From NCBI GenBank assembly GCA_038882955.1, contig JAVZNC010000003.1, positions 1-64,000 of the forward strand: a stretch of 64,000 bases of DNA, read 5' to 3'. The DNA comes from Candidatus Bathyarchaeia archaeon. Lineage in GTDB: Archaea > Thermoproteota > Bathyarchaeia > Bathyarchaeales > Bathycorpusculaceae. The position numbers and the translations under genes are program-made. The notes beneath the pieces were generated by a model. The model saw nothing but the letters and a program-made list of their open reading frames with translations. It ran no database searches and was not told where the DNA came from. Position 1 is the stretch's first letter; the number at the start of each line of letters is the position of its first letter. Positions 115-20,477 of this stretch are shown here, in pieces.

Positions 115-1320
115 ATGGTTGTGGCTCCCGCTTGCCCCTCATGCGGTTCAAACCGCCTCTATAAAGACGGCTTACGCTATTTAAGCGACGGCTCAAGCGT
201 CCAGCGGTGGCTTTGCAGAAACTGCGGTTACCGCTTCACAGATCCTAAGCATAAAGCCAAAACCGGATGGAGGAATCTTCCATCCGGCTTAAATTTGCCT
301 TCTGGCTTATTCTATTCCTGCCAAGGGAACAATGACCCAGATAGGCGAGAACCCACCGCTAGAAAGGCGGCGTTAACCTTGGCCACAGTAGAAAACAATA
401 CGAAAAGTGGGCAAGCGGGAGCCGCAGCAACAAATCAGATGGACGCCCATGGCAAAATCATTGAGCTCCTCTGGTGGATGAAAAGACAGAATTACGCAGA
501 ATCAACAATAGTTACTCGCGTTAGAGTGCTTAAGGTCTTAGTGAAACGTGGCGCCGATCTCTTTGACCCAGAATCTATCAAACACGTAATCGCTCAGCAG
601 AAGTGGAGCGAAGGAAGAAAAGCCAATGCAATAAAAGCCTACACAACTTTCCTAAAGATGGTTGGTGGAAAATGGCAGCCGCCCATATGCAAAGATGTTA
701 GAAAAATTCCCTTTATTCCTCTTGAACGCGAAATAGACGATTTAATAGTCGGCTGCAATCAGTATATCGCCACCTTTCTCAGAGTAGCTAAAGAAACAGG
801 TGCCAGAGCAGGTGAAATCTACAACCTTAAATGGATTGATGTAGACTTTGAAAGACAAACTATACGCATAACCGCTGAGAAAAACAGCAACCCTAGAATC
901 TTCAAAATGTCCAACATGCTTATAGCAATGCTTCAGAAGCTACCAAAAGAAAGAGATTACATATTCCATCACTACAGAACACTTAATCACTTGCGGAGGA
1001 GCTTTCAGAGATACCGCAAAAAGATCGCCTTTAAGCTTGGAAATCCAAGAATCCTACAAATAACAATTCACACACTGCGACACTGGAAAGCCACTATGGA
1101 ATATGCCAAAACAAAAGACATACTCCATACGATGCAAGTTTTAGGACACAAGAACATCAAGAACACGTTGGTCTACACGCAGCTGGCCCAAAACTTGGGA
1201 GAAGAGGAGTATATCTGCAGAGTAGCAAAAACGCCAAGCGCGGTGCAGGAGCTCATTGAAGCGGGCTTTGAATATGTATGCCAAAAAGACGATTTAACCT
1301 TCTTTCGTAAAAGAAAGTGA
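115..1320 (+). CDS. Tyrosine recombinase/integrase with N-terminal Zn ribbon
   Basis: Catalytic motifs TGARAGE, HTLRH, LGH, LVY; N-terminal CPSC..KDG..QRWLCRNC; ends 54 nt from the tRNA-Phe 3' end. Confidence 0.93.
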   Translation: MVVAPACPSCGSNRLYKDGLRYLSDGSSVQRWLCRNCGYRFTDPKHKAKTGWRNLPSGLNLPSGLFYSCQGNNDPDRREPTARKAALTLATVENNTKSGQAGAAATNQMDAHGKIIELLWWMKRQNYAESTIVTRVRVLKVLVKRGADLFDPESIKHVIAQQKWSEGRKANAIKAYTTFLKMVGGKWQPPICKDVRKIPFIPLEREIDDLIVGCNQYIATFLRVAKETGARAGEIYNLKWIDVDFERQTIRITAEKNSNPRIFKMSNMLIAMLQKLPKERDYIFHHYRTLNHLRRSFQRYRKKIAFKLGNPRILQITIHTLRHWKATMEYAKTKDILHTMQVLGHKNIKNTLVYTQLAQNLGEEEYICRVAKTPSAVQELIEAGFEYVCQKDDLTFFRKRK

Positions 1321-5576: not shown

Positions 5577-5867
5577 TTATCCGCCGCTTACAATTGGCAG
5601 CAAAACAACGTGGTCTCCGTTTTTGAGTTTTGTCTCTATGCCCTTCAACTGGTTCAGCAAGTAACCGTTCACCGTGACGATGTAGTTTGACTTTACATCT
5701 GTGCCCATCCTTTCATAAATCGCCTTTTTGAAGGCTTCTCCATACTTTTCGGAAAGCGCCATAAGCAAGTCGGCAACTGAAGAACCGTCGCTTATTTCTA
5801 TTTCCTCTTCTCTCATAGAGCCAATTACGTTTTTTATGTGCCCCACATATTCGACCTTGACCTTCAC
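5577..5867 (-). CDS. MoaD/ThiS-family ubiquitin-like protein (SAMP-like)
   Basis: Beta-grasp size; VNG..L..GD.V.LLPIVSGG with C-terminal GG. Confidence 0.9.
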   Translation of the reverse strand: MKVKVEYVGHIKNVIGSMREEEIEISDGSSVADLLMALSEKYGEAFKKAIYERMGTDVKSNYIVTVNGYLLNQLKGIETKLKNGDHVVLLPIVSGG

Positions 5868-5982: not shown

Positions 5983-7662
5983 GTGTTTGACTCAAAAAAG
6001 CTTTGGGAGATTAAAAAATGTAAGGAGAAATGGGAGAAAACAACATTGGCGCAAAGTTTTGGAAAGCTACCCGAAAGGGGCGAGTTTTCCACAAGCTCCG
6101 AGATTCCAGTTGCGCGCGTTTACACTCCAGTTGACGTTGCCAAGTTTGATTATCTGCGTGATTTGGGGTTTCCAGGCGAGTATCCGTTTACGCGTGGCGT
6201 TTATCCAACCATGTATAGGGCGAGATTTTGGACTATGAGGCAGTATGCTGGATTTGGAACCGCCGAGCAGACGAACAAGCGTTTTAAGTATTTGCTTGAG
6301 CATGGACAGACCGGCTTAAGCGTGGCTTTTGATTTTCCAACGCAAGTTGGCTATGACTGTGACCATCCAATGGCTGCTGGAGAAGTTGGAAAAGTAGGCG
6401 TAAGCGCAAGCACACTCCGCGACATGGAGATACTTTTCGACGGCATACCGCTCGACAAGGTTACAACTTCCATGACTATTAACGCGCCTGCAACCGTGCT
6501 GCTTGCCATGTATATTGCCGTTGGACAAGAGCAGGGCGTTGACCAAGCTGATTTGGGCGGAACGGTTCAGAATGATATTTTGAAGGAGTATGTTGCAAGG
6601 GGCATGTATATTTTCCCACCTAAGCCTTCCATGAGGCTTGTTACAGACATTTTTGAATACTGTTCCAAGCATATGCCAAAGTGGAACACTATAAGCATAA
6701 GTGGCTACCACATACGCGAGGCAGGAGCAACCGCTGTTCAAGAAATTGCATTTACACTTGCGAACGCTATTGCTTATGTTCAAGCGGCGGTTGATAGGGG
6801 TTTAGACCTTGACCAGTTTGCGGGTAGGCTCTCCTTCTTTTTCGCGGCGCACAACAACTTTTTTGAGGAAATAGCCAAGTTCCGCGCGGCACGAAGGCTC
6901 TGGGCAAAAATAATGCGTGAGCGTTTTAAGGCTAAAAACCCAGCTTCTTGGATGCTTCGTTTTCACACGCAAACTTCGGGTGTTTCCTTAACAGCCCAGC
7001 AGCCATACAACAACATTGTACGCGTTGCACTTCAAGCGCTTGCCGCGGTTCTTGGCGGAACACAGTCTTTGCACACGAACTCTTTCGATGAGGCTTATGC
7101 TTTGCCAAGCGAACAAGCCGTCACAATTGCACTTAGAACGCAGCAAATAATCGCCTACGAGAGCGGAGTGGTTGACACTGTTGACCCGTTGGCTGGCTCC
7201 TATTATGTTGAATATTTAACGAACGAGATTGAGGAGAGAGCCCTAAAGTATATTGAGGAGATTGACGCCATGGGCGGGGCTGTTGCCGCCATCGAAAAAG
7301 GCTTTATGCAAAGGGAAATTGTCGAAAGCGCCTACCGATTCCAGAAGGAGGTTGAATCCAAAAAGCGGATAATCGTAGGCGTCAACGAGTTCATAAGCGA
7401 GGAGGAAACGCCTATAAAAATTTTGCAGATAAACCCAGAAATTGAAAAAACCCTTGTTGAACGCCTTAAAAGGCTGAAAAAGCAGAGGAACAAAGCGCAG
7501 GTAGAAGAGGCTTTAGGTAAACTTCGAAGAGCCGCCGAACGTGAAGATGAAAACCTTATGCCCTACATACTTCAAGCTGTTAAGGCGTATGCCACCTTGG
7601 GCGAGATATGCGACGCGCTTCGGGAGGTGTTCGGTGAATACAAGCCTTCGACTATATTCTAG
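5983..7662 (+). CDS. Methylmalonyl-CoA mutase, large (substrate-binding) subunit
   Basis: [47 protein letters not shown]; no DxHxxG B12-binding domain. Confidence 0.95.
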
Positions 7663-8216
7663 TTAATTATGAATAGCGGTTCGCCCTCGCTTACAGATGA
7701 ACCTTCAGAAACAAGGACTTCGCGAACCGTTCCAGCCTTTGGCGCTGCAATTTCGTTCTCCATTTTCATGGCTTCAAGTATGCACAATATTTGACCAGTC
7801 TTGACCGAATCGCCCTTTTTCACCTTTACCGAAAGAATTTTTCCAGTCATGGGCGCAACTACAGCACCTTCAGCGACTTGCCTCGTTGCAGTTGACATTT
7901 TTGTCGGTGCAAGTTGTGAGGGCACGAAAGCTGCTAGTTCTGGCTTTTTAACAGGAGTTTTCACTTCAACCTTGAATGTGGCTCCTTCCACCTTAATCTG
8001 CATCAGTTTGTCCTTGTCAGCTTTTGGCAGTTCAACATCATAGTTTTTGCCGTTAACACTAATTTTGAAACTTTTTTCAAATTCCAGTTTTTCGTTTGAC
8101 AGTTCCGCGCTTACTGATTTGCCATCAACTTTTATAGTGAATACCTTTTCTCCGCTTCTTGTCAGTTCAATTTTTTTAGGTTTGCCGTCAACAAAAACTT
8201 CATATGTTGGCATCAT
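7659..8216 (-). CDS. Biotin carboxyl carrier protein (1.3S/MmdC-like) with repeated N-terminus
   Basis: [15 protein letters not shown] biotinylation motif; TGATG overlap with the upstream gene. Confidence 0.93.
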
Positions 8217-9760
8217 CAAACACCATGTTCAATTAGGTTTCGCCTTCCAACAAGTATCCATGGCGACGAAACGCCTCTCGCCCTTCTTGGGATTAACGCT
8301 TTCATCTTACTTGTGCTCACCATGTATGTTGCTATTGCCGCTGAAATCGCGGCAATTTCTTCAAGTTCTGCTACGCGCTCTGGTGGAATCCCGGTTTTCG
8401 CCTCTTCCTTTTTCACTTTTCTCTTTTTGAAGAATTCCATGGCTACTTGCGGGAAAAGCACGTATGTCAGCTTGTCCTCTTCACTTTCGATGTATGGTTT
8501 AACATCCTCTGGAATCTTATCCAAGGCTGGTTTAAGAAGGTCTGCTGGACGGCAAGTTATCGGCTTCTCGTCGCCAATGATTTTCCTTCTAACTTTCGGG
8601 TCTATGGGCGCTGGCGGCTTCCCATAAAAGCCCTTGACATAATCCCTTATTTCCTTTGGCACTATGCTATAGCGCTCGCCAGACAAAACATTGAAAACGG
8701 CTTGTATACCAACAAGCTGGCTTGTCGGCGTAACAAGCGGCGGATAACCCAACTCCTTTCGCACCCTTGGCACTTCCTCCAAAACTTCCTTCAATCGATG
8801 AAGCGCGTTCTGCTCCTTCAACTGCTCAAGAAGATTCGAAAACATTCCGCCTGGTATTTGATGAACGATTATTGAGGCGTCAACTCTCTCCGCCTTAGGG
8901 TCTATGAGCCTCAAAGGGTCGTAGTACTTTTCGCGGATTTCCCTAAAGTACTCACTTATCTCGTAGAGCAGTTGCATATCCAAGCCTGGGTCGTACGGCG
9001 TATCCTTCAAAGCTGCAACAATCGACTCTACTGGCGGTTGTGAAGTGCCCCATGCCAATGGCGAAAATGCTGCGTCAATTATGTCAACTCCAGCGTCGCA
9101 TGCGCGAAGATAGGTCATCATAACCATTCCGCTTGTGCTGTGCGAATGTAAGTGCACTGGCAAGCCCACCTCTTTTTTAAGGGCGCGTATTAGCTCGTAG
9201 GCTGGCTGTGGCGCAAGCATTCCAGCCATGTCCTTTATGCATATTGAATCACATTCGAGTTCTGCCAGTTTCTTGGCAACTTTCACGTAATACTCTATCG
9301 TGTGGACTGGACTTATCGTATAGCATATCGTGCCCTGCGCATGTTTGCCTACCTTCTTGATTGTTTTTATAGCTCTTTCCATGTTCCTAACATCGTTTAA
9401 CGCGTCGAAAATGCGGAATACGTCTATGCCGTTTTCCGCCGCCTTCTCAACAAACTTTATGACGACATCGTCTGGATAATTTCGGTAACCAACAACATTT
9501 TGTCCACGAAGAAGCATTTGGAGAGGCGTCCTCTTCACATGCCGTTTTAATATGCGAATTCTTTCCCACGGGTCTTCACCCAAATAGCGTATGCAAACAT
9601 CAAAAGTCGCGCCTCCCCACATCTCAAGCGAGAAAAATCCAACCCTATCCATTTTCTCTGCTATCGCCGCCATAGTGTCTGTGCGCATCCTCGTAGCCAT
9701 CAGAGACTGATGTGCATCTCTGAACGTGGTGTCTGTGATTTTAACCGGTTTCGAAGCCAT
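8216..9760 (-). CDS. Pyruvate/oxaloacetate carboxyltransferase (transcarboxylase 5S / PycB / OadA family) without biotin domain
   Basis: DTTFRDAHQS, EMWGGATFD, IKDMAG, HSH, LVTPTSQ. Confidence 0.93.
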   Translation of the reverse strand: MASKPVKITDTTFRDAHQSLMATRMRTDTMAAIAEKMDRVGFFSLEMWGGATFDVCIRYLGEDPWERIRILKRHVKRTPLQMLLRGQNVVGYRNYPDDVVIKFVEKAAENGIDVFRIFDALNDVRNMERAIKTIKKVGKHAQGTICYTISPVHTIEYYVKVAKKLAELECDSICIKDMAGMLAPQPAYELIRALKKEVGLPVHLHSHSTSGMVMMTYLRACDAGVDIIDAAFSPLAWGTSQPPVESIVAALKDTPYDPGLDMQLLYEISEYFREIREKYYDPLRLIDPKAERVDASIIVHQIPGGMFSNLLEQLKEQNALHRLKEVLEEVPRVRKELGYPPLVTPTSQLVGIQAVFNVLSGERYSIVPKEIRDYVKGFYGKPPAPIDPKVRRKIIGDEKPITCRPADLLKPALDKIPEDVKPYIESEEDKLTYVLFPQVAMEFFKKRKVKKEEAKTGIPPERVAELEEIAAISAAIATYMVSTSKMKALIPRRARGVSSPWILVGRRNLIEHGV

Positions 9761-9891
9761 AAATTGCCTAGCCCCTCTAGATATTTTGGAGTTTAAAGAA
9801 TAGTTAAGCTACTATTAATCTGTGATGGCAAGTTTAAGCCCCTTTTATAGATTGTTTTGAGCGCTTTTCCCCTAAGCCCCATTTAAAGAAC

Positions 9892-11460
9892 TTACAATGG
9901 TATGTTTCCATGTTTTCTTGCTGGTCTTGGCTCGCGTTTTGTCGCCAAACTCTCAAGTGCACTTATCAGTTTTGGTCTTGTTTCGGCTGGTTCTATAACC
10001 TCGTCTATGTAGCCCTTCTGAGCCGCAACATATGGGTTCGCAAATTTTCTTCTGTACTCGCTCACAAGTTCCATGCGCTTTTTCTGCGGGTCTTCCGCCT
10101 CAGAAATTTCTTTGCGAAAGATTATGTTTATTGCGCCTTGCGGTCCCATAACCGCGATTTCAGCTGTTGGCCAAGCATAGTTTATGTCCGCGCCAGAATG
10201 CTTCGAACCCATTACGTCGTATGCTCCTCCATAAGCCTTCCGCAGAATAACCGTGATTTTTGGAACAGTAGCCTCGCAGTACGCATACAAGAGCTTTGAG
10301 CCGTGCCTTATTATTCCGCCGTGCTCCTGTTCTGTGCCTGGCAAGAAGCCTGGGACATCAACGAATGTTATTATTGGTATGTTGAAGCAGTCGCAGAACC
10401 TTATAAACCGTCCAGCTTTCATGCTGCTGTTTATGTCTAAGGCTCCAGCATAATGCATGGGCTGGTTTGCAACTATGCCGACAACTTTGCCGTTTAGGCG
10501 TGCAAAGCCTATAACTATGTTTTGCGCCCACAACTGCTGAATCTCGAAGAACTCGCCGTTGTCCACAACGCTGTGTATAGCGTCTTTCACGTCGTAGGGC
10601 TTGTCTGGATCATCTGGGAGAACTTTTGTCAAAGCCTCGTCTGTGCGGTTCGGGTCGTCGGTAGGCTCAACCTCAGGCGGGTCTTCCAAATAATTGTTTG
10701 GCAAATAACTCAAAAGCTTCTTAATTATTTGTATGCAGTTTTCCTCATCCTTCGCTATGAAGTGGGCAACACCACTTTTTGTGGAATGCACCATCGCCCC
10801 GCCCAAATCTTCAAAACTAACCTCCTGTCCCAATGCGGCTTTAACCACGTCTGGACCAGTAATGAACATGTGGCTTGTCTTGTCAACCATTACAATGAAG
10901 TCAGTCAATGCTGGCGAGTAGACAGCTCCACCAGCGCACGGTCCCATTATGGCGCTTATCTGCGGAATCACGCCAGACGCTATCACGTTTCTGAAGAATA
11001 TGTCGCCGTAACCAGCAAGACTTGCCACGCCTTCTTGTATCCGTGCTCCGCCACTGTCGTTTAAGCCTATGACCGGCGCGCCAGTTTTTAGCGCTAAATC
11101 CATGAGCTTGCAAACCTTTTTGGCGAACATTTCGCCGAGCGAACCGCCGAAAACCGTGAAGTCTTGGCTAAAAACGTAAACAAGTCGCCCATCAATCGTG
11201 CCGTAACCCGTTATGACGCCGTCGCCTAGAAACTTCTTTTCAGCCATGCCGAATTCGGTGCATTGGTGAACAACAAAACGGTCAAGCTCATTAAAACTTC
11301 CAGCGTCCAACAACAATTCAATACGTTCACGAGCAGTCAACTTGCCCTTCGCATGCTGCTCCTCAATGCGTTTTTTTCCGCCGCCAAGCATCGCCTGCTC
11401 ATTCAACTCGCGTAAACGCCTAATCTTCTCCTCAACACTGGACTCTCCAGCCAAAGACAT
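9892..11460 (-). CDS. Acyl-CoA carboxyltransferase (12S / MmdA / PccB family)
   Basis: [53 protein letters not shown]. Confidence 0.95.
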
Positions 11461-11532
11461 ACACAACACCCTAAACGAGACACTAGTGAGTACAACAAAT
11501 ATTTAGAACCTATGGAAAAACAAGCAAAATTT

Positions 11533-11667: not shown

Positions 11668-12081
11668 TTAACTATGAATGTGGTCCAGAGCGTTTTCTAG
11701 CTCTTCGATTTTTCTGATGATTATGTCTGAATGCGTTATTATCCATGGGCTTGGGTTTTTTATTTTACATATGCATATGGTTTTCTTTTCCTTCTGGTTT
11801 GCATAGAAAAGTTCCATGCACGTTCCAGCTGAAAGTTTCGGCATGTAAGCAACCAAAACATCACATTTTTCAATGTCTTCTAAATCTCTCTTGATAAAGT
11901 CTGCTGCGGGCACTTTATCCCACCACCCAAACTCTGAACCTTTGTAGATTATTTTTTCTCTTTCCCAAGGGTCAACAACATCATAGCCACATTGTATGCA
12001 AATTTCGCGGATAACTTTTCTGTAGTTCTGCTTTGTTTCCATGCCTTGGATTGGACCTGAAATGAAAACTTTGCCCTTCAT
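11668..12081 (-). CDS. Nucleoside 2-deoxyribosyltransferase-like protein
   Basis: VFISGPI, D..DIEKCDVLVA, SAGTCMELFYA. Confidence 0.8.
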   Translation of the reverse strand: MKGKVFISGPIQGMETKQNYRKVIREICIQCGYDVVDPWEREKIIYKGSEFGWWDKVPAADFIKRDLEDIEKCDVLVAYMPKLSAGTCMELFYANQKEKKTICICKIKNPSPWIITHSDIIIRKIEELENALDHIHS

Positions 12082-12209
12082 GTTCTAGCCACGCAAAGAT
12101 TGCGGTGGATCCGCTATTAAATTTTATTTACTCATCAAGGGAAAAGCATTAAAAACAAGCTGATCATCCTAGCTTTTCTATAAGCCAATTTGAGAATGGA
12201 GCGCATAAT

Positions 12210-13457
12210 TTGGGACTTGTTGACCCAGCAGTCGCGATAGTAATTGCGTTTGCCCTACTTGTAATTCTGCTTTATAAACGCGTGAATTTGGGGATAACCC
12301 TAAACTTAACAGCCATAACCTTGGCGCTGCTTGCCCTCGAATGGACAAGAATACCCGTAGTGTTTTATGAGGCAAGCATCAAACCCGAAACGGTTTCAGT
12401 TGTTATCGCAACCTTTGGGATAATGCTGTTAAGCCAGCTTTACAATGAAACTGGAATCATTGACGAACTCAGCGAAAGCATAAGCAGATTAATCAACAAT
12501 CCAAAGATAGTGTTGGGGCTTGTGCCAGCGGTTATAGGACTTTTGCCTGTTGCTGGTGGAGCCCTGATGTCGGCGCCACTTGTTGATGTTGAGGCTGAAA
12601 AGCTTAAGTTGAAGCCTCAAAGGAAAGCATATATAAACTTGTGGTTTAGGCACACGATTTTTCCAGTTTACCCTTTAAGTCCGCCAATAATCACGACTGC
12701 TATGCTTACTGGCGTGGCGATTCCACTCATCATTTTGCGTCAAATTCCAGCAGTTCTTGTAATGATAATAGTTGGCTATGTAATCGGCTTTTGGAAGATA
12801 AAAAATCCGGAAAATAAAGAAGTGGAAGGCGAAAAAAGTCCGAATTCAAATTTTAAAACCTTTTTGTTGTCTTTTAGTCCAATTTTGGCAACAATTGTCT
12901 TCGCCATAGCCCTAAGTGTAACGGGAATCGAGTTTTTTACGCAGGGGCGCGATGTTGTAATTGCTGTTTTCGTAGGAATTGCAGTGTTAATTGTACTCTC
13001 AAGAATGCGTTTTACAACATTTGCCAAGCCATTCAAAAGCTGGGGGATTTATGGCATAACCCTCGCAGCCTACGGCGCCTTCCTATTGAGGGATGTTATG
13101 ATTTCTCCAGAAATTAGCCAGCTTTTCTCTCAAATAGTTACAAACGGCAGCAACTCATACGTTGGCACAATTCTCTTAGCAACGCTTCCGGCAGTTTTGG
13201 GGGTTCTCACGGGCTCACCAGTCAGCGGAATCGCCATAAGCATTCCAATACTTTGTGGGGCTTCATCAATAGCCGCAAACACGGCAGCATTAATTTACAT
13301 AAGCGCATATTTGGGATACACGATAGCGCCAACGCACCTATGCTTCACGTTCACAGCAGACTACTTCAAATGTCATCTAGGAAAAATGTACAAGTATGTA
13401 ATTCCATCCTTCATACCAACATTTCTAACGGCTCTACTAGTTTACTCTCTGCTCTAA
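12210..13457 (+). CDS. DUF401-like polytopic membrane protein (putative transporter)
   Basis: About 10-12 TM segments; IGLLPVAGGALMSAP, NLWFRH, PTHLC. Confidence 0.8.
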   Translation: MGLVDPAVAIVIAFALLVILLYKRVNLGITLNLTAITLALLALEWTRIPVVFYEASIKPETVSVVIATFGIMLLSQLYNETGIIDELSESISRLINNPKIVLGLVPAVIGLLPVAGGALMSAPLVDVEAEKLKLKPQRKAYINLWFRHTIFPVYPLSPPIITTAMLTGVAIPLIILRQIPAVLVMIIVGYVIGFWKIKNPENKEVEGEKSPNSNFKTFLLSFSPILATIVFAIALSVTGIEFFTQGRDVVIAVFVGIAVLIVLSRMRFTTFAKPFKSWGIYGITLAAYGAFLLRDVMISPEISQLFSQIVTNGSNSYVGTILLATLPAVLGVLTGSPVSGIAISIPILCGASSIAANTAALIYISAYLGYTIAPTHLCFTFTADYFKCHLGKMYKYVIPSFIPTFLTALLVYSLL

Positions 13458-13481: not shown

Positions 13482-14933
13482 CTATGTCTGTTTTTGCCAT
13501 TTTTCTTGTAGAAATCTTGGAATTTCCGAGGAATCTCTTGGTCCTACTAGGACTTGCCATCCGCTTAATTCTTCTATTTCTCCGCTTAGGCGCGCTGCCT
13601 TTCCAGGGATTATCAGTTTTCTGTGCTTAACTTTGTTTTCTATTCCAGAGGTTTTTATGGCTTCGGCTACTTTTTCTGCTGTGAGTTTGCGTCCGGCTAC
13701 TGCGCTGTCGACGGCTATGCCTTCTGTGTCCACGACGAGCAAGTAGGCGTTTACTTTTGCGTTTTCAATGTCCGATGCTACCGTGTAATATGTTAATGCG
13801 AAGTTTGTTGTGAACATTACTGGCGAGTTCTCGTCTGGAGTGCCGAACACTTTTAGTCCTGGCTCTACGGCTACTGGCTTGCGTGGGTCTGTGTAGATGT
13901 TCTGTCGCAGTATAACATTTGGCAGCAATGCCCAGCCGTCGACGCTGTGCATTATTAAGATGTCGGCGAAACGCACTATAAGCATACCAGCCAAGCATGC
14001 CTCTTTCCACTTGGCAACCTCTTCTGGGGCTTCGCCTTTTCCTATCCAAGCTGTCATGGGCACGCCAATCAGTGGAAAGCCTAAAACCTCGTCTCCCCGT
14101 TTACACGCAGCTCTGCGAAGCATTGTGAAGTTATTTAGGGTTCCAGCTAAGCCTTCTTCTGGGAAGGTGCCAGGGTCAAGGACAAGGTCGCTGACACCAT
14201 ATTCAATTAGCGTTTTCGCTAGAGACTTTAACATTTTAAGGTTGTTTGGCGCGAAAACGGTTAATGGACAATTGTAGGCGAGTGCAAGTTCAGCCATCTC
14301 CTGCCAGTTTTCTGTCGTCGCCGCGTACAATAGTGGACGCGCTTTTGGAACAGCTTCCAACCCAGCTTTTAGAATGCTTGGGTTCAGTGAGCACAGTATT
14401 AGTGGAAGGGTTGTGTTTTCGGCGACTTTTCTGACTGTTTCCTTGAACTTTTCTGGGTCATTTGACGTTGAGCGTACGGCTATCATGTCAAGCTTTAACA
14501 TCTGCCCGATGTATTCAAACTTGAACTGTTCAGTCTTTTTTATGCGGCTCAGCATTTCCTCTTCAGTCATCTCGTCTGTCACGTCTATGGCGATTGCTGT
14601 TGGGTTAAAGTATGTAAATTCGTGGCGGTACATGACAAGTTTGCCGCCGACTTTGATGGCGCAGTCTCCAACGCCGATAACAACCTCTTTTATTGCTGGC
14701 TTGAGCATATCCTTTAGTTGGTTGTAGGCTTTCTCGAACTCCTTAGCCAAGAGCGGAGAACATTTCTCTATTGGGACTTCACGGTTGACAAGTTTCGTGG
14801 CGAAAGCCATGCAGTTTTCTTCGCCGCACTCTTTGCAGTTTGTACGTGGCAAAAGTTTGTAAACGTCTATTGGGCTTAACTCTCTTATTCCAACTTTTCC
14901 TTTGGCTTCTCTTTCGCTCATAACGCTATCCAC
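13482..14933 (-). CDS. cdhE: Acetyl-CoA decarbonylase/synthase gamma subunit (corrinoid Fe-S large)
   Basis: LPRTNCKECGEENCMAFA, NIYTDPRKP, TTNFALTY, VGPRDSS. Confidence 0.96.
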   Translation of the reverse strand: MDSVMSEREAKGKVGIRELSPIDVYKLLPRTNCKECGEENCMAFATKLVNREVPIEKCSPLLAKEFEKAYNQLKDMLKPAIKEVVIGVGDCAIKVGGKLVMYRHEFTYFNPTAIAIDVTDEMTEEEMLSRIKKTEQFKFEYIGQMLKLDMIAVRSTSNDPEKFKETVRKVAENTTLPLILCSLNPSILKAGLEAVPKARPLLYAATTENWQEMAELALAYNCPLTVFAPNNLKMLKSLAKTLIEYGVSDLVLDPGTFPEEGLAGTLNNFTMLRRAACKRGDEVLGFPLIGVPMTAWIGKGEAPEEVAKWKEACLAGMLIVRFADILIMHSVDGWALLPNVILRQNIYTDPRKPVAVEPGLKVFGTPDENSPVMFTTNFALTYYTVASDIENAKVNAYLLVVDTEGIAVDSAVAGRKLTAEKVAEAIKTSGIENKVKHRKLIIPGKAARLSGEIEELSGWQVLVGPRDSSEIPRFLQEKWQKQT

Positions 14934-14934
14934 C

Positions 14935-16155
14935 TTAAACTTTCATTGAAACCCATTCAACAAGCCTCTCGGCGTTTCCAACGTTGCCGCCCAGAAGCTG
15001 CTCTATAACGTTCTTAATCGTTTTTACAGCGGCTGGATGCATCATCATGAAAAGGTCAACGCCAGCCAGAAGAAGCGTTGATGCTGTTAGGACTTCCCAC
15101 AGTGGACCGCGCAGTTCGCGTGGTTCCCATTCAGGTGCCATTTCAAGCCAAGCTTCGCGGGCTGCCCAGGCGTTTGTTGTTCCAGAGGACATTGGATGCG
15201 CTAGTTCAGGGTCTCCCATAAGTGCTGCCAGTCTGGCTCGTTCCATGTTTGTGAAGGCGTAATCCAAACCGTAGCCAAGAGCGGCTGTTGTTAAGTCCAT
15301 AACTATGTCTTCTTTTGGTAGGAAATCGTAGAGTATGCGGTTTAATTCTCTTGCAAGGTTCAAATCCATTGGCGTAAACGACAAGGCTACGTGCCCATGC
15401 TTTTTTATGAATTTTGCGCACCTTTCAACGTCCATGTCCCGCGTTATCGAACTTATTAGGAAGCGTTCTCCAGCGAATGCTTCGGCAACAGCCTCAAAAA
15501 CGTCTGCATCCTTCTTCGGGTCTCCACAGCCTCCAATTATTAGCGGCACATCCACTGCCTGCGCAACTTCCTCAACTGTTTTGACAGCCTCTTTTGGCGT
15601 GGCATCCTTAACAAGCGGGTCTATGCTTATCAAGTGCACAGTTAAGAGGTCAGCCCCAAATTTTTCAACAGCAAGCTTCGCCCAAGCAGCGGGATCCTCT
15701 ATAACATCCTTCACATGCGTTTTAACAGCCTTTGGCAGTGGAACCTTCATGTCGAAAACGTCAACCGCGATCACTGGAGGATGAGGCATGGGTTTTTCAA
15801 AAGTGTAGAAGGCTGGGGTTGTCTCGCCTCCGATGACTATTGATTTGCCGCGGGTTCCTCCCTCGCTTTTTGTGGCTCCAAGCTTAACCTCAACAACCTT
15901 TCCTGGATAGGTTTCAACTGGCGGCACAAACTCCATTTCAATTATTTTTGTGGGTTTAGCCTTTAACGGCGGAGCAACCTTTGGCGGCGCAACAACTGGC
16001 GCGGCTACAGCGCTTGGTTGTATCCAAAGCTCTAAATCGCCGACTTCCATCTCGAAGTCTTCCAGTTCAATCTCTTGAAGCTTTGCCAGAAGTTCAAGCA
16101 GCCGCGAATTCAACTTTAAGCCTAAAGTTTGCTCTTTTTTCTCGTTTTTTGTCAA
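14935..16155 (-). CDS. cdhD: ACDS delta subunit (corrinoid Fe-S small)
   Basis: GATKSEGGTR, DPAAWAK, ALGYGLDY, NAWAAREAW, MMHP. Confidence 0.95.
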   Translation of the reverse strand: MTKNEKKEQTLGLKLNSRLLELLAKLQEIELEDFEMEVGDLELWIQPSAVAAPVVAPPKVAPPLKAKPTKIIEMEFVPPVETYPGKVVEVKLGATKSEGGTRGKSIVIGGETTPAFYTFEKPMPHPPVIAVDVFDMKVPLPKAVKTHVKDVIEDPAAWAKLAVEKFGADLLTVHLISIDPLVKDATPKEAVKTVEEVAQAVDVPLIIGGCGDPKKDADVFEAVAEAFAGERFLISSITRDMDVERCAKFIKKHGHVALSFTPMDLNLARELNRILYDFLPKEDIVMDLTTAALGYGLDYAFTNMERARLAALMGDPELAHPMSSGTTNAWAAREAWLEMAPEWEPRELRGPLWEVLTASTLLLAGVDLFMMMHPAAVKTIKNVIEQLLGGNVGNAERLVEWVSMKV

Positions 16156-16162
16156 ATCCCTT

Positions 16163-17569
16163 TCACCTTTTCTCGGCTTTTTCGCTTTTTAGCGAGCGGA
16201 TAATCACTTTTTTGGCGTAGATTTTCGCGTCTTTCAGGATTATTTTGAAACCTCCAGCAGTTATCGGCAAGGTTGTAGCGGTAATTACTGGAGCTGTTGG
16301 CATCTCCTCTCTTGTCTCTGCTGGTGCTGCCTCCTCTACTGCAACGCCTACCTCTTCTTTCCAGCGCTCAACAACTGGATGGTTGCGTTCTTTGAGAAAT
16401 GCCTTTAACTCGTCAATTGTTTTCGCGTCTTCTTCTGTGGCGATTTTGTCGACAAGCTCTGCTGGAATGAAGTTTTTCACTCTTTCCTTAACCTCTTTTG
16501 GAAGCCAAACAACGCGGCTCCATCCGCCGTCTGCCTGCAAAAACTTCGGAGAGCGCATGTACTCAATTGATATTCCATGGAAACCGTCAACTTGGCGTCC
16601 ACCAGCAGTTGAGTCCGCAAGCGTTGAGAAAGCTAAACCGTTTACGGCTACATCCCTATAACCCCTATGCACGATGCCGAAACCGTCAACTTCTGGAATA
16701 TAAAAGGCTACAGCCTCGAAGCATCCGCATGACGTGTGCGGATAACCAAACGCAGTGTAAAGCCAAACTCGCGTGATTTCGCCAAGAGACTTCTTCTTAA
16801 CAGCCTCGTTCACGCCAGAAAACTCGCCCTTAACAGGGTCCAACATCTCGCCCTTCTCAATTGTGAAAACTGGTCCTTTGGGGTCTATACTTGCAGCTGC
16901 CCTTCCGTCAAACCAGCTTATGGCGCCGCAGTTCGAGTACCTTTGCGGTGTTATTACACAAACGTGTGTTGGCGCGAAGGATTGGCATAAGATGCATCCG
17001 TAAAACTTGTCAACCTCCTCATCCTTCAAGCCTCTAGCCCTAGCATCCCTTGCTTCATAGATTTTTAATGCTTCTTCGTAGAGCGGTTTCACTTTGGCGG
17101 GGTCTGTTATGAATGTTACTTGCATTTTCTCGATTATTGGCAGTTCGCTTTTGAAAAGCCTATGTAGGACTTTTCCGATGAACTGGAAGGAGTTTAAGCC
17201 CTTCTGGAAGGATTTTTTGCTCAGTCTAAGCCAAATGTCATAGCGCTGGTTTAGGTGCATAAATCCTTCAATGAAGTTGCAGTACTCGTGTATGCGCCTC
17301 TCAATTACGCCTTCAAGTTCAGGTTCAAGCTGTGCGCCAGCAACTTCGATGAGTATTCCAAACGGGTAGCTTTTGCCTTCCTCCATATCCTTCAAGTCTG
17401 GTCCTATTATGGTTACTTTTCCATCTTCGACTTCTTCTGGCTTCTTCACCCGCGCTAACTCAAATTTTTCTTTTATGTCTGGTCCGCCAAGTTCAACGTG
17501 CATGTCGTTTCTGCGTATTCTTTCGCCTTCGTAGATTACGCCTACGTCTACGGGTATGTCTTCAAACAT
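16163..17569 (-). CDS. cdhC: ACDS beta subunit (acetyl-CoA synthase)
   Basis: YEGERIR, GCILCQSFAPTHVC, PHTSCGCFE (A-cluster ligands). Confidence 0.97.
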   Translation of the reverse strand: MFEDIPVDVGVIYEGERIRRNDMHVELGGPDIKEKFELARVKKPEEVEDGKVTIIGPDLKDMEEGKSYPFGILIEVAGAQLEPELEGVIERRIHEYCNFIEGFMHLNQRYDIWLRLSKKSFQKGLNSFQFIGKVLHRLFKSELPIIEKMQVTFITDPAKVKPLYEEALKIYEARDARARGLKDEEVDKFYGCILCQSFAPTHVCVITPQRYSNCGAISWFDGRAAASIDPKGPVFTIEKGEMLDPVKGEFSGVNEAVKKKSLGEITRVWLYTAFGYPHTSCGCFEAVAFYIPEVDGFGIVHRGYRDVAVNGLAFSTLADSTAGGRQVDGFHGISIEYMRSPKFLQADGGWSRVVWLPKEVKERVKNFIPAELVDKIATEEDAKTIDELKAFLKERNHPVVERWKEEVGVAVEEAAPAETREEMPTAPVITATTLPITAGGFKIILKDAKIYAKKVIIRSLKSEKAEKR

Positions 17570-17579
17570 TGACACTTTC

Positions 17580-18122
17580 TCATTTGCCTCCTTCAACTTT
17601 TTCAATTATAACTTTAAGGTTTTCAAACCAATCTTTGAGGGAAATGTTCGGGAAAGACCAGTTGGCATTTGGCTGGTAAACATTATCCAAAGTTACAGTT
17701 TTAACGTGCGGCGCAAAATGTTTCAAGCCGTTAAGAATTGTCCACTCCATGTAGTAGGGAAGACCCAAAAACAAAGCTAAATCGTAAGGTCCATTACCGT
17801 CAAGTCCAGTCCACGTGGAATCCGTAAGCCTATTCCCAATGTCCACGGCGGGCATCCACCCCTCTGGCTTGTAGCCTCTGCCTAAAAATTCGCTTACGGT
17901 GTGGGCTGTCGCCACAACTGGAATTTTGGCTTTCCTCGCCAACTCAATGACAAAATCGATCAGCTTCTCATCTTCAAAGGCTATTTCAGCGGCTTTATGC
18001 CCAACTATCAAGATTGGGCGTTTAGCCTTTTTTATCATGGCAGCAGCAACATCAGGCTTTGTTATAACCATAGCCTTTTTGGGTCCGGGAATTTCTGCGG
18101 TTTGCCAAGGTTCAGCAGCCAT
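17580..18122 (-). CDS. cdhB: ACDS epsilon subunit
   Basis: PWQTAEIPGP, KRPILIVG, WTGLDGNGPYDL, YQPNANWS; operon position. Confidence 0.93.
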   Translation of the reverse strand: MAAEPWQTAEIPGPKKAMVITKPDVAAAMIKKAKRPILIVGHKAAEIAFEDEKLIDFVIELARKAKIPVVATAHTVSEFLGRGYKPEGWMPAVDIGNRLTDSTWTGLDGNGPYDLALFLGLPYYMEWTILNGLKHFAPHVKTVTLDNVYQPNANWSFPNISLKDWFENLKVIIEKVEGGK

Positions 18123-18128
18123 ACACGT

Positions 18129-20477
18129 TCACTCCTTTCTTTTCCTAATTAACCGCGGCAAAAGTGTTGGGTCTGGGATGACTGTTTCCTTCCATCCTTT
18201 TTCTTCGAGAATCCTTATTATTTCGTCTTTCATGGTTACTGGTATGTCCGCAATTGTCCTCACGAATAGGTGAATGTCTTTTGGCATTGTTCCGTATAGC
18301 CTTTTATGCAAGTCTATGTAATGCGTAAGTTTTATGGCGCGTCCCTTCGTTGTATCGTTGGGACGCATACAAAGTTTAGCTATCATGACAATGGCTTCTT
18401 CCTTTGTTTCAGCCGCATAAAAGAGGTGTTCCGGAGCTGGCCCAACATACACTTTCTCGCCCGTTCGGGCGTCGTAAACGTACCAGTCTTCTTCGCGGTC
18501 AGCCCTTCCCAAGAGCATGCGCCTATACTTTGTGCCGTGTGGACCGACAACAACTGGCACGCCTAAACGCCAGAAACCGCTTGCGATTGAGGCGGCTTTT
18601 TGGGAGTAGGCGCCCCAAGCAACGCCGACAGCGCCCACACGGTTAAGTATGTAGTCGGCTATTTCCTCGTAGTTGGCGCGTAAATTCCTTTTTGCGAATA
18701 TGTTTGCGATTTTTATGGCTGCCCCAGCGATATGCGCGTTTGAGACGCATGAACCCACGTTAACGAGACCGCCAGCCGCGAACTCGCCGGTGAACACTTC
18801 GTAGGGCGTTTTTCCCTCTTCGTCCTTGTACATTCCAGCTGACATTGCGGCGCAGCCAGAAGTAACTACTATGTAGCGTCTGTTTGCGAATTCTCGGCAT
18901 ATTTCGGCTACTTCCAATCCGCCTTTTGGGTAGTTGGCGCATCCAACAACAGCTATCACGCCTGGGATTTCGCCGAGAACTATTGGACTGCCAACGTTCC
19001 GAATTTCCACGTCTTGGATTGCGCCTCTCCCAGCCCTTATCTTGTAGGTTTCCTCTTTCAGCTTCTTCTCCCCAGCCTTAACGATGAAACTGTGAATTGG
19101 TAAATCGACTGGGCAAGCGTGTTCGCATCTTCCACAACCAACACAGAAATCATATAATTCCGCAAGTTCTGTTAGGCTTCCCTGCGCCGCTGCCTTCATA
19201 GCCTTTGGAATTTCAAGGTCTTGCGGACAAGCTCTTCTGCAGTCGCTGCATTGCCTACACTCTTTTGCTCTTCGCAAGACTTCGTCGACTTCTGGTATGA
19301 CCTTAAACTTTTTCCGCAACGAAGCAACTTTCAAAGCGACTTTGACTGCTACCTCACCAACCTTTTCTGGGTCGAGGATTAAAACGCCTGAAGCCTTCCC
19401 GCTTACAAGGTCTTCCACAATCTGGTCTGCTGGGTCGTTTGTGCGGTTGGGCAGACCCATACAATTCTTTTCTGAAGCGACTATGACTGGAGCCTTAATC
19501 CTTTGAGCCTCGTAGAAAGAGTCTATTCTAATGCACTGTTCGTCGAGCACAACAACATCTGGAACACCGCTTCTTATAAAACGCAACTGCCACGAAATTG
19601 GGCCGACGATTTTTCCACGTGTATAATAACGCGTTGTGTCATGCGCAGTGCAGCATAACCCGCAAACTTCAATTTCTCCGTCGAGACCATTATCCTTGAT
19701 ATAATCGATTATTCCGACAGAGGGAACAACATTATGCCCGATACATAGGATTACTGGTTTTTCAATGTTTATTGTTCCAAAACCCAAATTCACAAGCGGT
19801 GCGTCTGGGTCAGCCTTCGGAAAACCGTAAGCAGCTATTTGGGCTATGTCTGCAACTTCCATTCCAACGTGGTCAACCATTCCAGCGTGAAAGACCTTTG
19901 ACTCAAAGTCCAAATTGTGTCCTTCTTGTCCAGTGTGGGCGACAGAAAGTAGGTGGGTAATTTGTGTTTCAACATAGTCCAAAATCTCTTCTAAATCGCC
20001 TAGTGTTTCGGGTTTTATTCCGCAGACAAGCCTCGTCACTGGAGCCTCAACTTTAACGTTTAGTCCGCCAACATCTAACGGGTAGTTGCGCCCATACTTT
20101 TCAATTAAATGCTCAACCAAGTGACGTGCATGTCCAGTGTGCGTGGCTGCACCGATACAGCATGCGAGAAGCACGATGCGGGATTGTTGTCCGGCCATGT
20201 CTATGCCGCATGCCCCACGCTTGTTTCCAGTTAGGTCACACTTGCCGAACGTGCATAAACAGCATAAATCGCAGAAGGGCATGTAAAATGGCTTGTAGCG
20301 CTGAAGAAGCTTCATGTCCCACTCTCTCAAAGTCGTAAGCGAAGGAAAAGGCGTCGGTCCCATCGGTTCAGCCCATTTTTCTTCGAGGAGTTTGCCGATG
20401 GAGATTTCGAGGTTTTTTATTGTGCCAACATCGGTTTTCAGTTCGTCAACCTTAACACGTATGCCTTTTCTGTTCAA
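18129..20477 (-). CDS. cdhA: ACDS alpha subunit (Ni-CO dehydrogenase)
   Basis: CDLCCLCTFGKC, GLCCTAHD, two CxxCxxCxxxCP motifs, GSCVSN; TTG start with GGTGAGG. Confidence 0.97.
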   Translation of the reverse strand: MNRKGIRVKVDELKTDVGTIKNLEISIGKLLEEKWAEPMGPTPFPSLTTLREWDMKLLQRYKPFYMPFCDLCCLCTFGKCDLTGNKRGACGIDMAGQQSRIVLLACCIGAATHTGHARHLVEHLIEKYGRNYPLDVGGLNVKVEAPVTRLVCGIKPETLGDLEEILDYVETQITHLLSVAHTGQEGHNLDFESKVFHAGMVDHVGMEVADIAQIAAYGFPKADPDAPLVNLGFGTINIEKPVILCIGHNVVPSVGIIDYIKDNGLDGEIEVCGLCCTAHDTTRYYTRGKIVGPISWQLRFIRSGVPDVVVLDEQCIRIDSFYEAQRIKAPVIVASEKNCMGLPNRTNDPADQIVEDLVSGKASGVLILDPEKVGEVAVKVALKVASLRKKFKVIPEVDEVLRRAKECRQCSDCRRACPQDLEIPKAMKAAAQGSLTELAELYDFCVGCGRCEHACPVDLPIHSFIVKAGEKKLKEETYKIRAGRGAIQDVEIRNVGSPIVLGEIPGVIAVVGCANYPKGGLEVAEICREFANRRYIVVTSGCAAMSAGMYKDEEGKTPYEVFTGEFAAGGLVNVGSCVSNAHIAGAAIKIANIFAKRNLRANYEEIADYILNRVGAVGVAWGAYSQKAASIASGFWRLGVPVVVGPHGTKYRRMLLGRADREEDWYVYDARTGEKVYVGPAPEHLFYAAETKEEAIVMIAKLCMRPNDTTKGRAIKLTHYIDLHKRLYGTMPKDIHLFVRTIADIPVTMKDEIIRILEEKGWKETVIPDPTLLPRLIRKRKE

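Follow-up and report, generated by a model that had tools for sequence, protein, structure and literature searches.

Transcarboxylase is a textbook enzyme whose biochemistry is known from a small number of bacteria. The enzyme of Propionibacterium freudenreichii subsp. shermanii (EC 2.1.3.1) consists of three parts, 12S, 5S and 1.3S, has no biotin carboxylase (BC) and is linked to methylmalonyl-CoA mutase (MCM); its 1.3S carrier has 123 aa, of which the N-terminal part is an unstructured tether. To our knowledge, an archaeal transcarboxylase is known as a genome inference only, in print for Asgard archaea. Imachi et al. (2020; PMC7015854) infer propionate metabolism in Asgard archaea from genes for a methylmalonyl-CoA carboxyltransferase, a biotin carboxyl carrier protein (BCCP) and a pyruvate carboxyltransferase, together with an associated biotin ligase; this precedent weakens the reading in an initial annotation of the DNA described here, which knew of no characterized archaeal transcarboxylase. 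Here, we describe a set of four genes in a 64,000-nucleotide stretch (the window; positions 1–64,000 of contig C3) from a hot-spring archaeon of the class Bathyarchaeia, whose assembly (genome G000) comprises 31 contigs and 1.54 Mb. The set encodes an acyl-CoA carboxyltransferase (12S-like), a pyruvate/oxaloacetate carboxyltransferase (5S-like), a stand-alone carrier (BCCP1) and MCM. Judging from gene content and comparison, we propose that the first three probably form an ATP-independent methylmalonyl-CoA:pyruvate transcarboxylase that was left after the loss of BC. A literature search, with most subscription journals and supplements outside its reach, found no publication that ties Bathyarchaeia (or Bathyarchaeota) to transcarboxylase or to these carboxylases.

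Open reading frame (ORF) calls and Pfam/NCBIfam profile searches placed the four genes at positions 5983–11469 (Table 1). The 12S, 5S and BCCP1 genes lie on one strand, abut or overlap each other and converge on the MCM gene, with an overlap of 4 nt between the carboxylase genes and the convergent gene. This is the layout that the initial annotation had described; we also confirmed its observations that the cluster lacks BC and the membrane pump subunit OadB/MmdB and that a Wood-Ljungdahl operon, encoding carbon monoxide dehydrogenase/acetyl-CoA synthase (CODH/ACS), lies 2 kb away. The window thus holds an acyl-CoA carboxyltransferase of the 12S/PccB family, a pyruvate/oxaloacetate carboxyltransferase with intact site motifs and no biotin domain of its own, and a separate small biotin carrier with a biotinyl-lysine motif, as expected of EC 2.1.3.1.

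The absence of BC and OadB/MmdB, a further hallmark of EC 2.1.3.1, extends to the whole assembly. Profile searches of G000 gave zero matches to Biotin_carb_C and Biotin_carb_N (control positive in 13 of 14 named genomes) and zero to OAD_beta, the profile of OadB/MmdB (control positive in 2 of the 14). A tblastn search of G000 with the BC of a relative (G077) returned a sole match, to an ATP-grasp_3 protein of 25% identity encoded on contig C29. We rejected this protein as a hidden BC: it lacks both Biotin_carb_N and Biotin_carb_C, and its neighbors are an M42 peptidase, a PhoU-domain protein and an Mtd-like dehydrogenase. The genome-wide searches that the initial annotation had called for therefore found neither BC nor oadB/mmdB. 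We regard the absence of BC and of OadB/MmdB as strong, though short of absolute, because the completeness of the assembly is 95.59% and its contamination 6.09%. Genome-wide searches also showed a single Carboxyl_trans gene and a single PYC_OADA gene, and the two Biotin_lipoyl matches were BCCP1 and GcvH, the glycine-cleavage H protein, so that BCCP1 is the only BCCP. Given a single carrier and two transferases in a genome that lacks BC and OadB, the sole cycle that would regenerate free biotin is one that moves the carboxyl group between methylmalonyl-CoA/propionyl-CoA and oxaloacetate/pyruvate.

Further genes of the proposed pathway lie on contig C1, where those for biotin ligase and methylmalonyl-CoA epimerase (the latter also sought by the initial annotation) lie side by side and a thiol-type fumarate reductase (FrdA, FrdB) is divergent from both. 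Relatives carry BC and a second carrier (BCCP2) between epimerase and FrdA; in G000, this place is a 289-bp gap (C1:146376-146665) on an assembled contig. We also noted that the iron-sulfur subunit FrdB of this reductase (C1:146665-149943; L126:3665-6943) is fused to two CCG domains, a form that presumably resembles the thiol:fumarate reductase of methanogens, and that the divergent position of Frd next to the carboxylase cluster is kept in many relatives.

The nearest public contigs are from Bathyarchaeia, with 5S identity of up to 93%. Among 201 genomes of the class that were sampled, 19, G000 included, carry a true 5S orthologue (E < 1e-140); the remaining matches are HMGL-like paralogues (E > 1e-14). 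A close group of nine genomes (71–81% identity to the window 5S) has OadB in none and BC in six. A distant group of nine (51–57% identity) has BC in none and OadB in all nine, seven of which carry it within a few kb of 5S on one contig; these are sodium-pump decarboxylases. Three BC-less close relatives, G184, G072 and G118, are 97–100% complete, two of them 100%. In two other close relatives, G077 and G008, the operon also includes BC, 4 kb upstream; the order in G077 is Frd (divergent), BC, BCCP2, epimerase, biotin ligase, 12S, 5S and BCCP1, with MCM convergent.

We then scored a wider set of loci by tblastn. Of the eighty related loci retrieved, 64 belong to the Bathyarchaeial clade when placed in the 5S tree (see below); one, L074, was omitted to leave 63. 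L074 (DASPTR010000174.1) is a 6-kb contig filed as Candidatus Acidoferrum, and it carries a 5S-BCCP1-MCM block with 78–81% identity that is nested in the Bathyarchaeial clade; mis-binning probably accounts for it. The synteny comparison suggested by the initial annotation had a divided outcome. The layout of the window is widely kept, with 12S upstream of 5S in 44/63 loci, BCCP1 directly after 5S in 58/63 and MCM downstream on the other strand in 51/63. However, BC and BCCP2 are present in 18/63 loci (12 in the G077 order, six rearranged), where a BC of 503–520 aa with a C-terminal tail is followed by BCCP2. We therefore found in part of the relatives, and not in G000, the co-conserved BC that had been named beforehand as evidence against a transcarboxylase. 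Genome-wide searches of the 45 genomes that contain the remaining loci found BC in 10 and none in 35, OadB in one and none in 44, and 12S in 40. Overall, 28 of the 63 genomes have a BC somewhere and 35 have none, the latter including three chromosome-level genomes and the two closest relatives of G000 (G201 and G202). Both transferases occur without BC and OadB in 31 of these genomes, as in G000, including the chromosome-level OY970072.1, CP070679.1 and CP070765.1. An apparent decay of 5S in one of these records (L097, CP070679.1) was rejected, as a stretch of N in the deposited sequence interrupts the gene. The OadB-bearing exception, G242 (the genome of locus L101), is BC-less and has OadB with its own BCCP on contig C48 and a 5S-BCCP1-MCM block on another contig; it either has both systems or is a mixed bin.

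The distribution of carriers separates two modules. A Biotin_lipoyl search of 52 genomes found BCCP2 beside BC in 11 of 13 BC-containing genomes. Thirty-one of 35 BC-less genomes had exactly one match of BCCP size, which was BCCP1, usually together with a ~375-aa E2-like lipoyl protein. The four exceptions were two small assemblies with no match, one genome with a second BCCP-like match at a contig edge, and the OadB-bearing genome, with a second BCCP beside OadB. Genomes with BC likewise hold a single 12S. BCCP2 travels with BC, being missing from all but one or two BC-less genomes, and BCCP1 travels with 5S. A BC-dependent carrier should have gone with BC; because BC-less genomes keep BCCP1, this carrier appears to be independent of BC.

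We next compared selection on the four genes in unsaturated BC-less pairs and in three BC-containing pairs, using the ratio of nonsynonymous to synonymous substitution rates (dN/dS) by the Nei-Gojobori method (NG86). The ranges without and with BC were 0.026–0.051 and 0.030–0.076 for 12S, 0.040–0.065 and 0.064–0.087 for 5S, 0.029–0.093 and 0.044–0.090 for MCM, and 0.097–0.201 and 0.176–0.237 for BCCP1. All four genes are under strong purifying selection, and there was no relaxation after the loss of BC.

The initial annotation had asked for trees of both carboxyltransferases; the 5S tree was built, and it placed 5S with the PycB lineage of two-subunit pyruvate carboxylases (PC). This gene tree of 92 rows (IQ-TREE quick search, LG+G4; fused PycB rows cut to the carboxyltransferase domain) includes some incomplete metagenome-assembled genomes (MAGs), and four of its row pairs are one genome reached twice. 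The Bathyarchaeial clade was monophyletic (support 99). Its sister was a group of fused Thermoplasmata PycB proteins encoded beside PycA, with Bacillota PycB-PycA pairs further out. The basal Bathyarchaeial branches were mostly BC-containing. A 20-row clade, starred in the tree, held 19 BC-less rows and one row untested for BC, and the window protein grouped with two BC-less genomes. The BC-less label required 16 changes on this tree, of which at least 11 were forced by starred branches. In G008 (L036; G008:C4 13668-15537), frameshifts disrupt both BC and BCCP2, whereas their neighbors 12S, 5S, BCCP1 and MCM are undamaged; this looks like gene loss in progress, with a local assembly error also possible.

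These results suggest a route by which a transcarboxylase might have arisen. The ancestral Bathyarchaeial system would have been modular, with one PccB-type core, an ATP module (BC and BCCP2) and a pyruvate module (5S and BCCP1). This lineage, like many others, would have dropped BC and BCCP2, and the enzyme would not have been inherited from the bacterial transcarboxylase. A working enzyme is supported by the fact that a large BC-less clade has kept the trio along with biotin ligase, epimerase, MCM and Frd, under strong purifying selection.

The subunits themselves are consistent with such a separate ancestry. We observed that 12S, which is 76–96% identical across 19 relatives, matched PccB proteins best among solved structures (1vrg, 752 bits; 1xnv, 717; 1x0u, 703), ahead of the P. 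shermanii 12S (1on3, 626), and that it scored 876.5 bits against TIGR01117 (mmdA subfamily), below the cut-off of 998.8. Its Asp418 aligns with D422 of Streptomyces coelicolor PccB in an 11-residue aligned stretch, and we take the residue at this position to favor propionyl-CoA. Similarly, 5S exceeded the cut-off of the 465-position OadA model PRK12331 (729.6 against 718) and fell below that of the transcarboxylase 5S equivalog NF008984 (572.4 against 827). Its best match in the PDB was the beta subunit of a two-subunit PC (5ks8_C, 551 bits), followed by OadA (2nx9, 523) and 5S (1rqb, 482). The motifs RDAHQS, CIKDMAG and HLHSH are intact when aligned with 1rqb, 2nx9 and 5ks8, and presumably mark the metal and carbamyl-lysine positions. 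NCBI labels the 5S orthologues of relatives "oxaloacetate decarboxylase subunit alpha."

The carrier BCCP1 comprises an N-terminal eight-stranded BT-type barrel (residues ~5–87), a disordered linker (90–115) and a biotinyl domain (119–185) whose motif EAMKM (Lys152) is invariant in 20 orthologues. Its sequence aligns with the C-terminal 150–170 residues of the alpha subunit of propionyl-CoA carboxylase (PCC) and of PycB, and its match to PCC_BT is weak (E 8e-6; profile positions 34–124 of 126). In the AlphaFold2 model (mean pLDDT 72.8), residues 5–87 form eight strands and no helix, which shows the predicted fold to be a BT barrel. A Foldseek search with the model ranked human PCC alpha (7ybu_A) first (E 3e-13, 186 columns). 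VIA-align superposed residues 1–186 on PCC alpha 556–728 (Z 14.1; 158 aligned residues; root-mean-square deviation 10.8) and matched residues 554–728 of 3n6r_G with Z 13.4. Given these starting points, BCCP1 would begin partway into the BT domain and lack its N-terminal part. The BT domain of PCC (PF18140) is an eight-stranded barrel around a long helix with a hook, and we presume that this helix and hook are the missing part. An ESM Atlas search with BCCP1 residues 1–100 gave a best score of 0.85, at chance level.

A candidate partner for this incomplete barrel is the C-terminal tail of 5S (Table 1). An alignment of 15 5S tails and nine BC tails revealed a common pattern, EE[VI]AA[VI]S.A[IV]A, KA[LV]IP.R and S.W.LAGR, and the 20 5S orthologues compared all have L466, E467, A470, S473, A488, S499 and W501. 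The fused PycB outgroups have no such tail; a similar tail is found in the alpha subunit of an OadB-linked homologue (L021). Isolated tails gave sub-threshold Pfam matches only, OAD_gamma for the 5S tail (E 0.03) and ACC_epsilon for a BC tail (E 0.099). They gave no match to PCC_BT at E ≤ 10, so that the identification of the tail with the BT helix and hook is without sequence support. Among proteins of 282–900 aa, no fused form of the tail was found, and a homology search with the tail gave seven proteins, all of them 5S orthologues.

Compared with known systems, the resemblance to the Propionibacterium transcarboxylase lies in the three-part composition, the lack of BC, the link to MCM and the expected reaction. 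The Bathyarchaeial subunits are not orthologous to the bacterial ones, being a PccB-type transferase, a split PycB-type transferase and a BT-barrel carrier, and 12S and 5S miss the cut-offs of the bacterial families. The 186-aa carrier contains a BT barrel of PCC type, the C terminus of 5S is a tail in common with archaeal BC, and relatives can hold BC in the operon. With archaeal AccC-AccB-PccB of Thermoproteota and with bacterial and human PCC, the trio shares a PccB-type, hexamer-forming transferase, and BCCP1 corresponds to the C terminus of PCC alpha; unlike those systems, G000 has no BC or BCCP2, and the gene next to BCCP1 encodes a pyruvate carboxyltransferase instead of BC. With the two-subunit PC (PycA/PycB) of methanogens and of Methylobacillus flagellatus (5ks8), 5S and BCCP1 jointly align with PycB, the former with its carboxyltransferase domain and the latter with residues 453–612, but in G000 PycB is split into two genes, a BC-like tail has been gained and PycA is absent. 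The Na+-translocating decarboxylases OadABG and MmdABCD use the same transferase families, as does the OadB-linked distant Bathyarchaeial group, whereas the OadB/MmdB gene is missing from G000 and from all nine close relatives. In comparison with the Asgard sets (PMC7015854), the case here comes from a different phylum and adds a recurrent loss of BC with the trio kept, as well as the shared tail and BT barrel.

We reasoned that the enzyme could work as follows. The 12S-type transferase would move the carboxyl of (S)-methylmalonyl-CoA onto the biotin of BCCP1, and the 5S-type transferase would hand it to pyruvate, giving oxaloacetate and propionyl-CoA overall in a reversible reaction. A single BCCP1 would serve both transferases, and the 5S tail and the BCCP1 barrel may together form a PCC-like BT domain docked on the 12S core. 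The barrel and the tail give indirect support to a putative three-subunit complex in which one biotin would reach both active sites. G000 also encodes a succinyl-CoA synthetase (SCS), a class I fumarase, three Ldh/Mdh-family dehydrogenases and an ATP-type phosphoenolpyruvate carboxykinase (PEPCK); no archaeal PEP carboxylase was found in any of 10 genomes. The convergent MCM with the epimerase, biotin ligase, thiol-type fumarate reductase, SCS, fumarase and Ldh/Mdh-family dehydrogenases would close a succinate/propionate loop. Flux might run from pyruvate to propionyl-CoA as an electron sink, or from amino-acid-derived propionyl-CoA to pyruvate with a gain of ATP at SCS, so that either propionate formation or propionyl-CoA oxidation may be the physiological direction.

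The mutase of the window fits such a loop in its substrate residues. It carries the motifs TMRQYAGF and KEYVARGMY, and thus Tyr and Arg at positions where isobutyryl-CoA mutases (ICM) have Phe and Gln; we take these to be the substrate residues Y89 and R207 of the P. shermanii enzyme and the signature of true methylmalonyl-CoA mutases. G000 has a second acyl-CoA mutase large subunit (C1:56282-59881; L003:6282-9881), a 559-aa protein that is 67% identical to the window MCM and, with Phe and Gln, is ICM-like. Its operon holds MeaB, a CobA-type adenosyltransferase and the only 137-aa B12 subunit of G000, and adjoins thiolase- and HMG-CoA-synthase-like genes. A 250-aa B12 protein on contig C2 was considered as the MCM small subunit and rejected, since its B12-binding_2 and B12-binding domains make it a methyltransferase-type corrinoid protein.

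Several of our observations weigh against a transcarboxylase. For the MCM small subunit, which the initial annotation had suggested searching for, the only 137-aa B12 subunit lies beside the ICM-like paralogue on another contig, and none adjoins the window MCM. No BioY biotin transporter was matched in G000, and the biotin ligase (C1:145297-145956; L126:2297-2956) has 220 aa and no BPL_C, in comparison with 265–271 aa and BPL_C in relatives. PEPCK is present, so that oxaloacetate could be made without the trio. Both transferases score below the transcarboxylase family cut-offs, and the nearest non-Bathyarchaeial 5S homologues are fused PycB proteins next to PycA/BC, that is, ATP-dependent PC. 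BC persists in 28 of 63 relatives, and in 18 of these it belongs to the cluster, so that the trio may have originated within carboxylases that depend on ATP. The completeness and contamination of the assembly (95.6% and 6.1%) count here as well, and the 45 locus-derived genomes come with no completeness figures, some of them being small (0.8–1.1 Mb). As for expression, no RNA run was found among the listed sequencing runs that hold the locus; the holders are hot-spring metagenome contigs.

We weighed three alternative explanations. In the first, the transferases are uncoupled: each would pair with BCCP1 to decarboxylate oxaloacetate or methylmalonyl-CoA as a soluble enzyme that conserves no energy, or else the whole set would be slowly decaying since the loss of BC. 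Decarboxylase use of the 5S fold does exist in the class, as seen from the distant homologues that are OadB-linked in 9/9 genomes and from the similarly tailed alpha subunit in L021, and the frameshifts in G008 imply that decay can occur in these clusters. However, an OadB-family subunit that could decarboxylate carboxybiotin was found in neither G000 nor the nine close relatives and in only one of the 45 others. Both transferases, the single BCCP, biotin ligase, epimerase and MCM are co-retained in a clade of at least 19 BC-less species, and the genes are not decaying, because dN/dS in BC-less pairs (0.03–0.2) equals that in BC-containing pairs. We consider this explanation unlikely.

An equally improbable second explanation accepts a transcarboxylase but assigns it acetyl-CoA/malonyl-CoA or a broad range of acyl-CoA, so that it would make malonyl-CoA from oxaloacetate without ATP instead of serving propionate metabolism. 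PccB-type transferases of Thermoproteota accept acetyl-CoA and propionyl-CoA alike. Against this, MCM is syntenic in 51/63 loci and the cluster of relatives includes the epimerase, the Asp at the PccB D422 position would favor propionyl-CoA, and SCS, fumarate reductase and fumarase complete a methylmalonyl-CoA route. Gene sets for the HP/HB (3-hydroxypropionate/4-hydroxybutyrate) cycle have also been reported for three Bathyarchaeial MAGs in PMC9802188, which lends this explanation some support; these MAGs may concern BC-containing lineages.

The third explanation, that the trio are parts of ordinary ATP-dependent carboxylases (PCC or acetyl-CoA carboxylase with 12S, and a split PC with 5S and BCCP1) whose BC is unassembled or too divergent, draws on the BC-BCCP2 pairs in the same cluster in 18/63 relatives, the sister relationship of 5S to PycB beside PycA, the BT-type domain of BCCP1, of a kind that contacts BC in PCC and in two-subunit PC, the incomplete assembly and the ATP-grasp_3 protein, but it is the least probable of the three given that three independent searches found no BC, that the ancestral BC-BCCP2 site is an assembled 289-bp gap, that G201, G202, three chromosome-level relatives and three 97–100% complete MAGs are also BC-less, that BCCP2 is missing too, and that the C29 protein lacks both BC end domains and has unrelated neighbors.

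Taken together, the proposal of the initial annotation that this archaeon may carry out ATP-independent transcarboxylation survives in modified form. It describes the only complete catalytic cycle that the gene content of G000 allows, and the set is conserved under selection in BC-less relatives; the parts are not orthologues of those of Propionibacterium, and BC occurs in a large share of relatives. The comparative argument is unusually clean, as BC and BCCP2 have been lost repeatedly while the transferases, one carrier, biotin ligase, epimerase and MCM were kept under strong selection. A second archaeal phylum would thereby have a transcarboxylase-type set, of other ancestry than the bacterial one, its transferases being of PccB and split PycB descent and its carrier having a BT domain of PCC type. 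If the proposal is true, Bathyarchaeia, which are among the most abundant archaea of anoxic sediments, gain a succinate/propionate branch that costs no ATP, which bears on who makes and removes propionate there. It would also provide a worked example of an enzyme changing its reaction class through module loss, and a simple three-gene test system. More speculatively, Bathyarchaeial biotin enzymes might in general be plug-in modules that dock through a tail-plus-barrel "split BT" on a single PccB-type core; many lineages would then have become transcarboxylases by discarding the ATP module, and those running an ATP-free Wood-Werkman-type loop beside the Wood-Ljungdahl pathway could be unrecognized propionate producers or syntrophic consumers.

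Table 1. Features of the carboxylase locus and the adjacent CODH/ACS operon, in window coordinates
Feature	Position	Strand	Details
MCM large subunit, catalytic barrel only	5983-7662	+	559 aa; MM_CoA_mutase E 2e-241
BCCP1, stand-alone biotin carrier	7659-8219	-	186 aa; Biotin_lipoyl E 1.6e-23; weak N-terminal PCC_BT E 8e-6
5S-like pyruvate/oxaloacetate carboxyltransferase (split PycB)	8216-9760	-	514 aa; HMGL-like + PYC_OADA; without biotin domain
C-terminal tail of the 5S-like protein (residues ~462-514)	8219-8377	-	candidate docking element; common to BC tails of relatives
12S-like acyl-CoA carboxyltransferase, PccB type	9892-11469	-	525 aa; Carboxyl_trans E 1e-210
CODH/ACS genes: CdhD, second CdhD-family protein, CdhC, CdhB, CdhA	13482-20477	-	2 kb from the carboxylase cluster

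The interval between the carboxylase cluster and the CODH/ACS operon (window 11668-13457) contains genes for a nucleoside 2-deoxyribosyltransferase-like protein and for a membrane protein of DUF401/TIGR00529, neither of which was found in the seven loci of relatives that were compared. For this reason, the DUF401 protein (12210-13457) was rejected as a stand-in pump subunit. On the other side, a 96-aa ThiS/Urm1-like gene (window 5577-5867, minus strand) adjoins the MCM gene, and one relative has it in the same place (L038:11930-12220; 61% identity). Near the start of the window, a phage-integrase-family gene (115-1320, plus strand) lies upstream of genes for flavodoxin, GNAT, isochorismatase and M24 peptidase and could be the edge of an integrated element.

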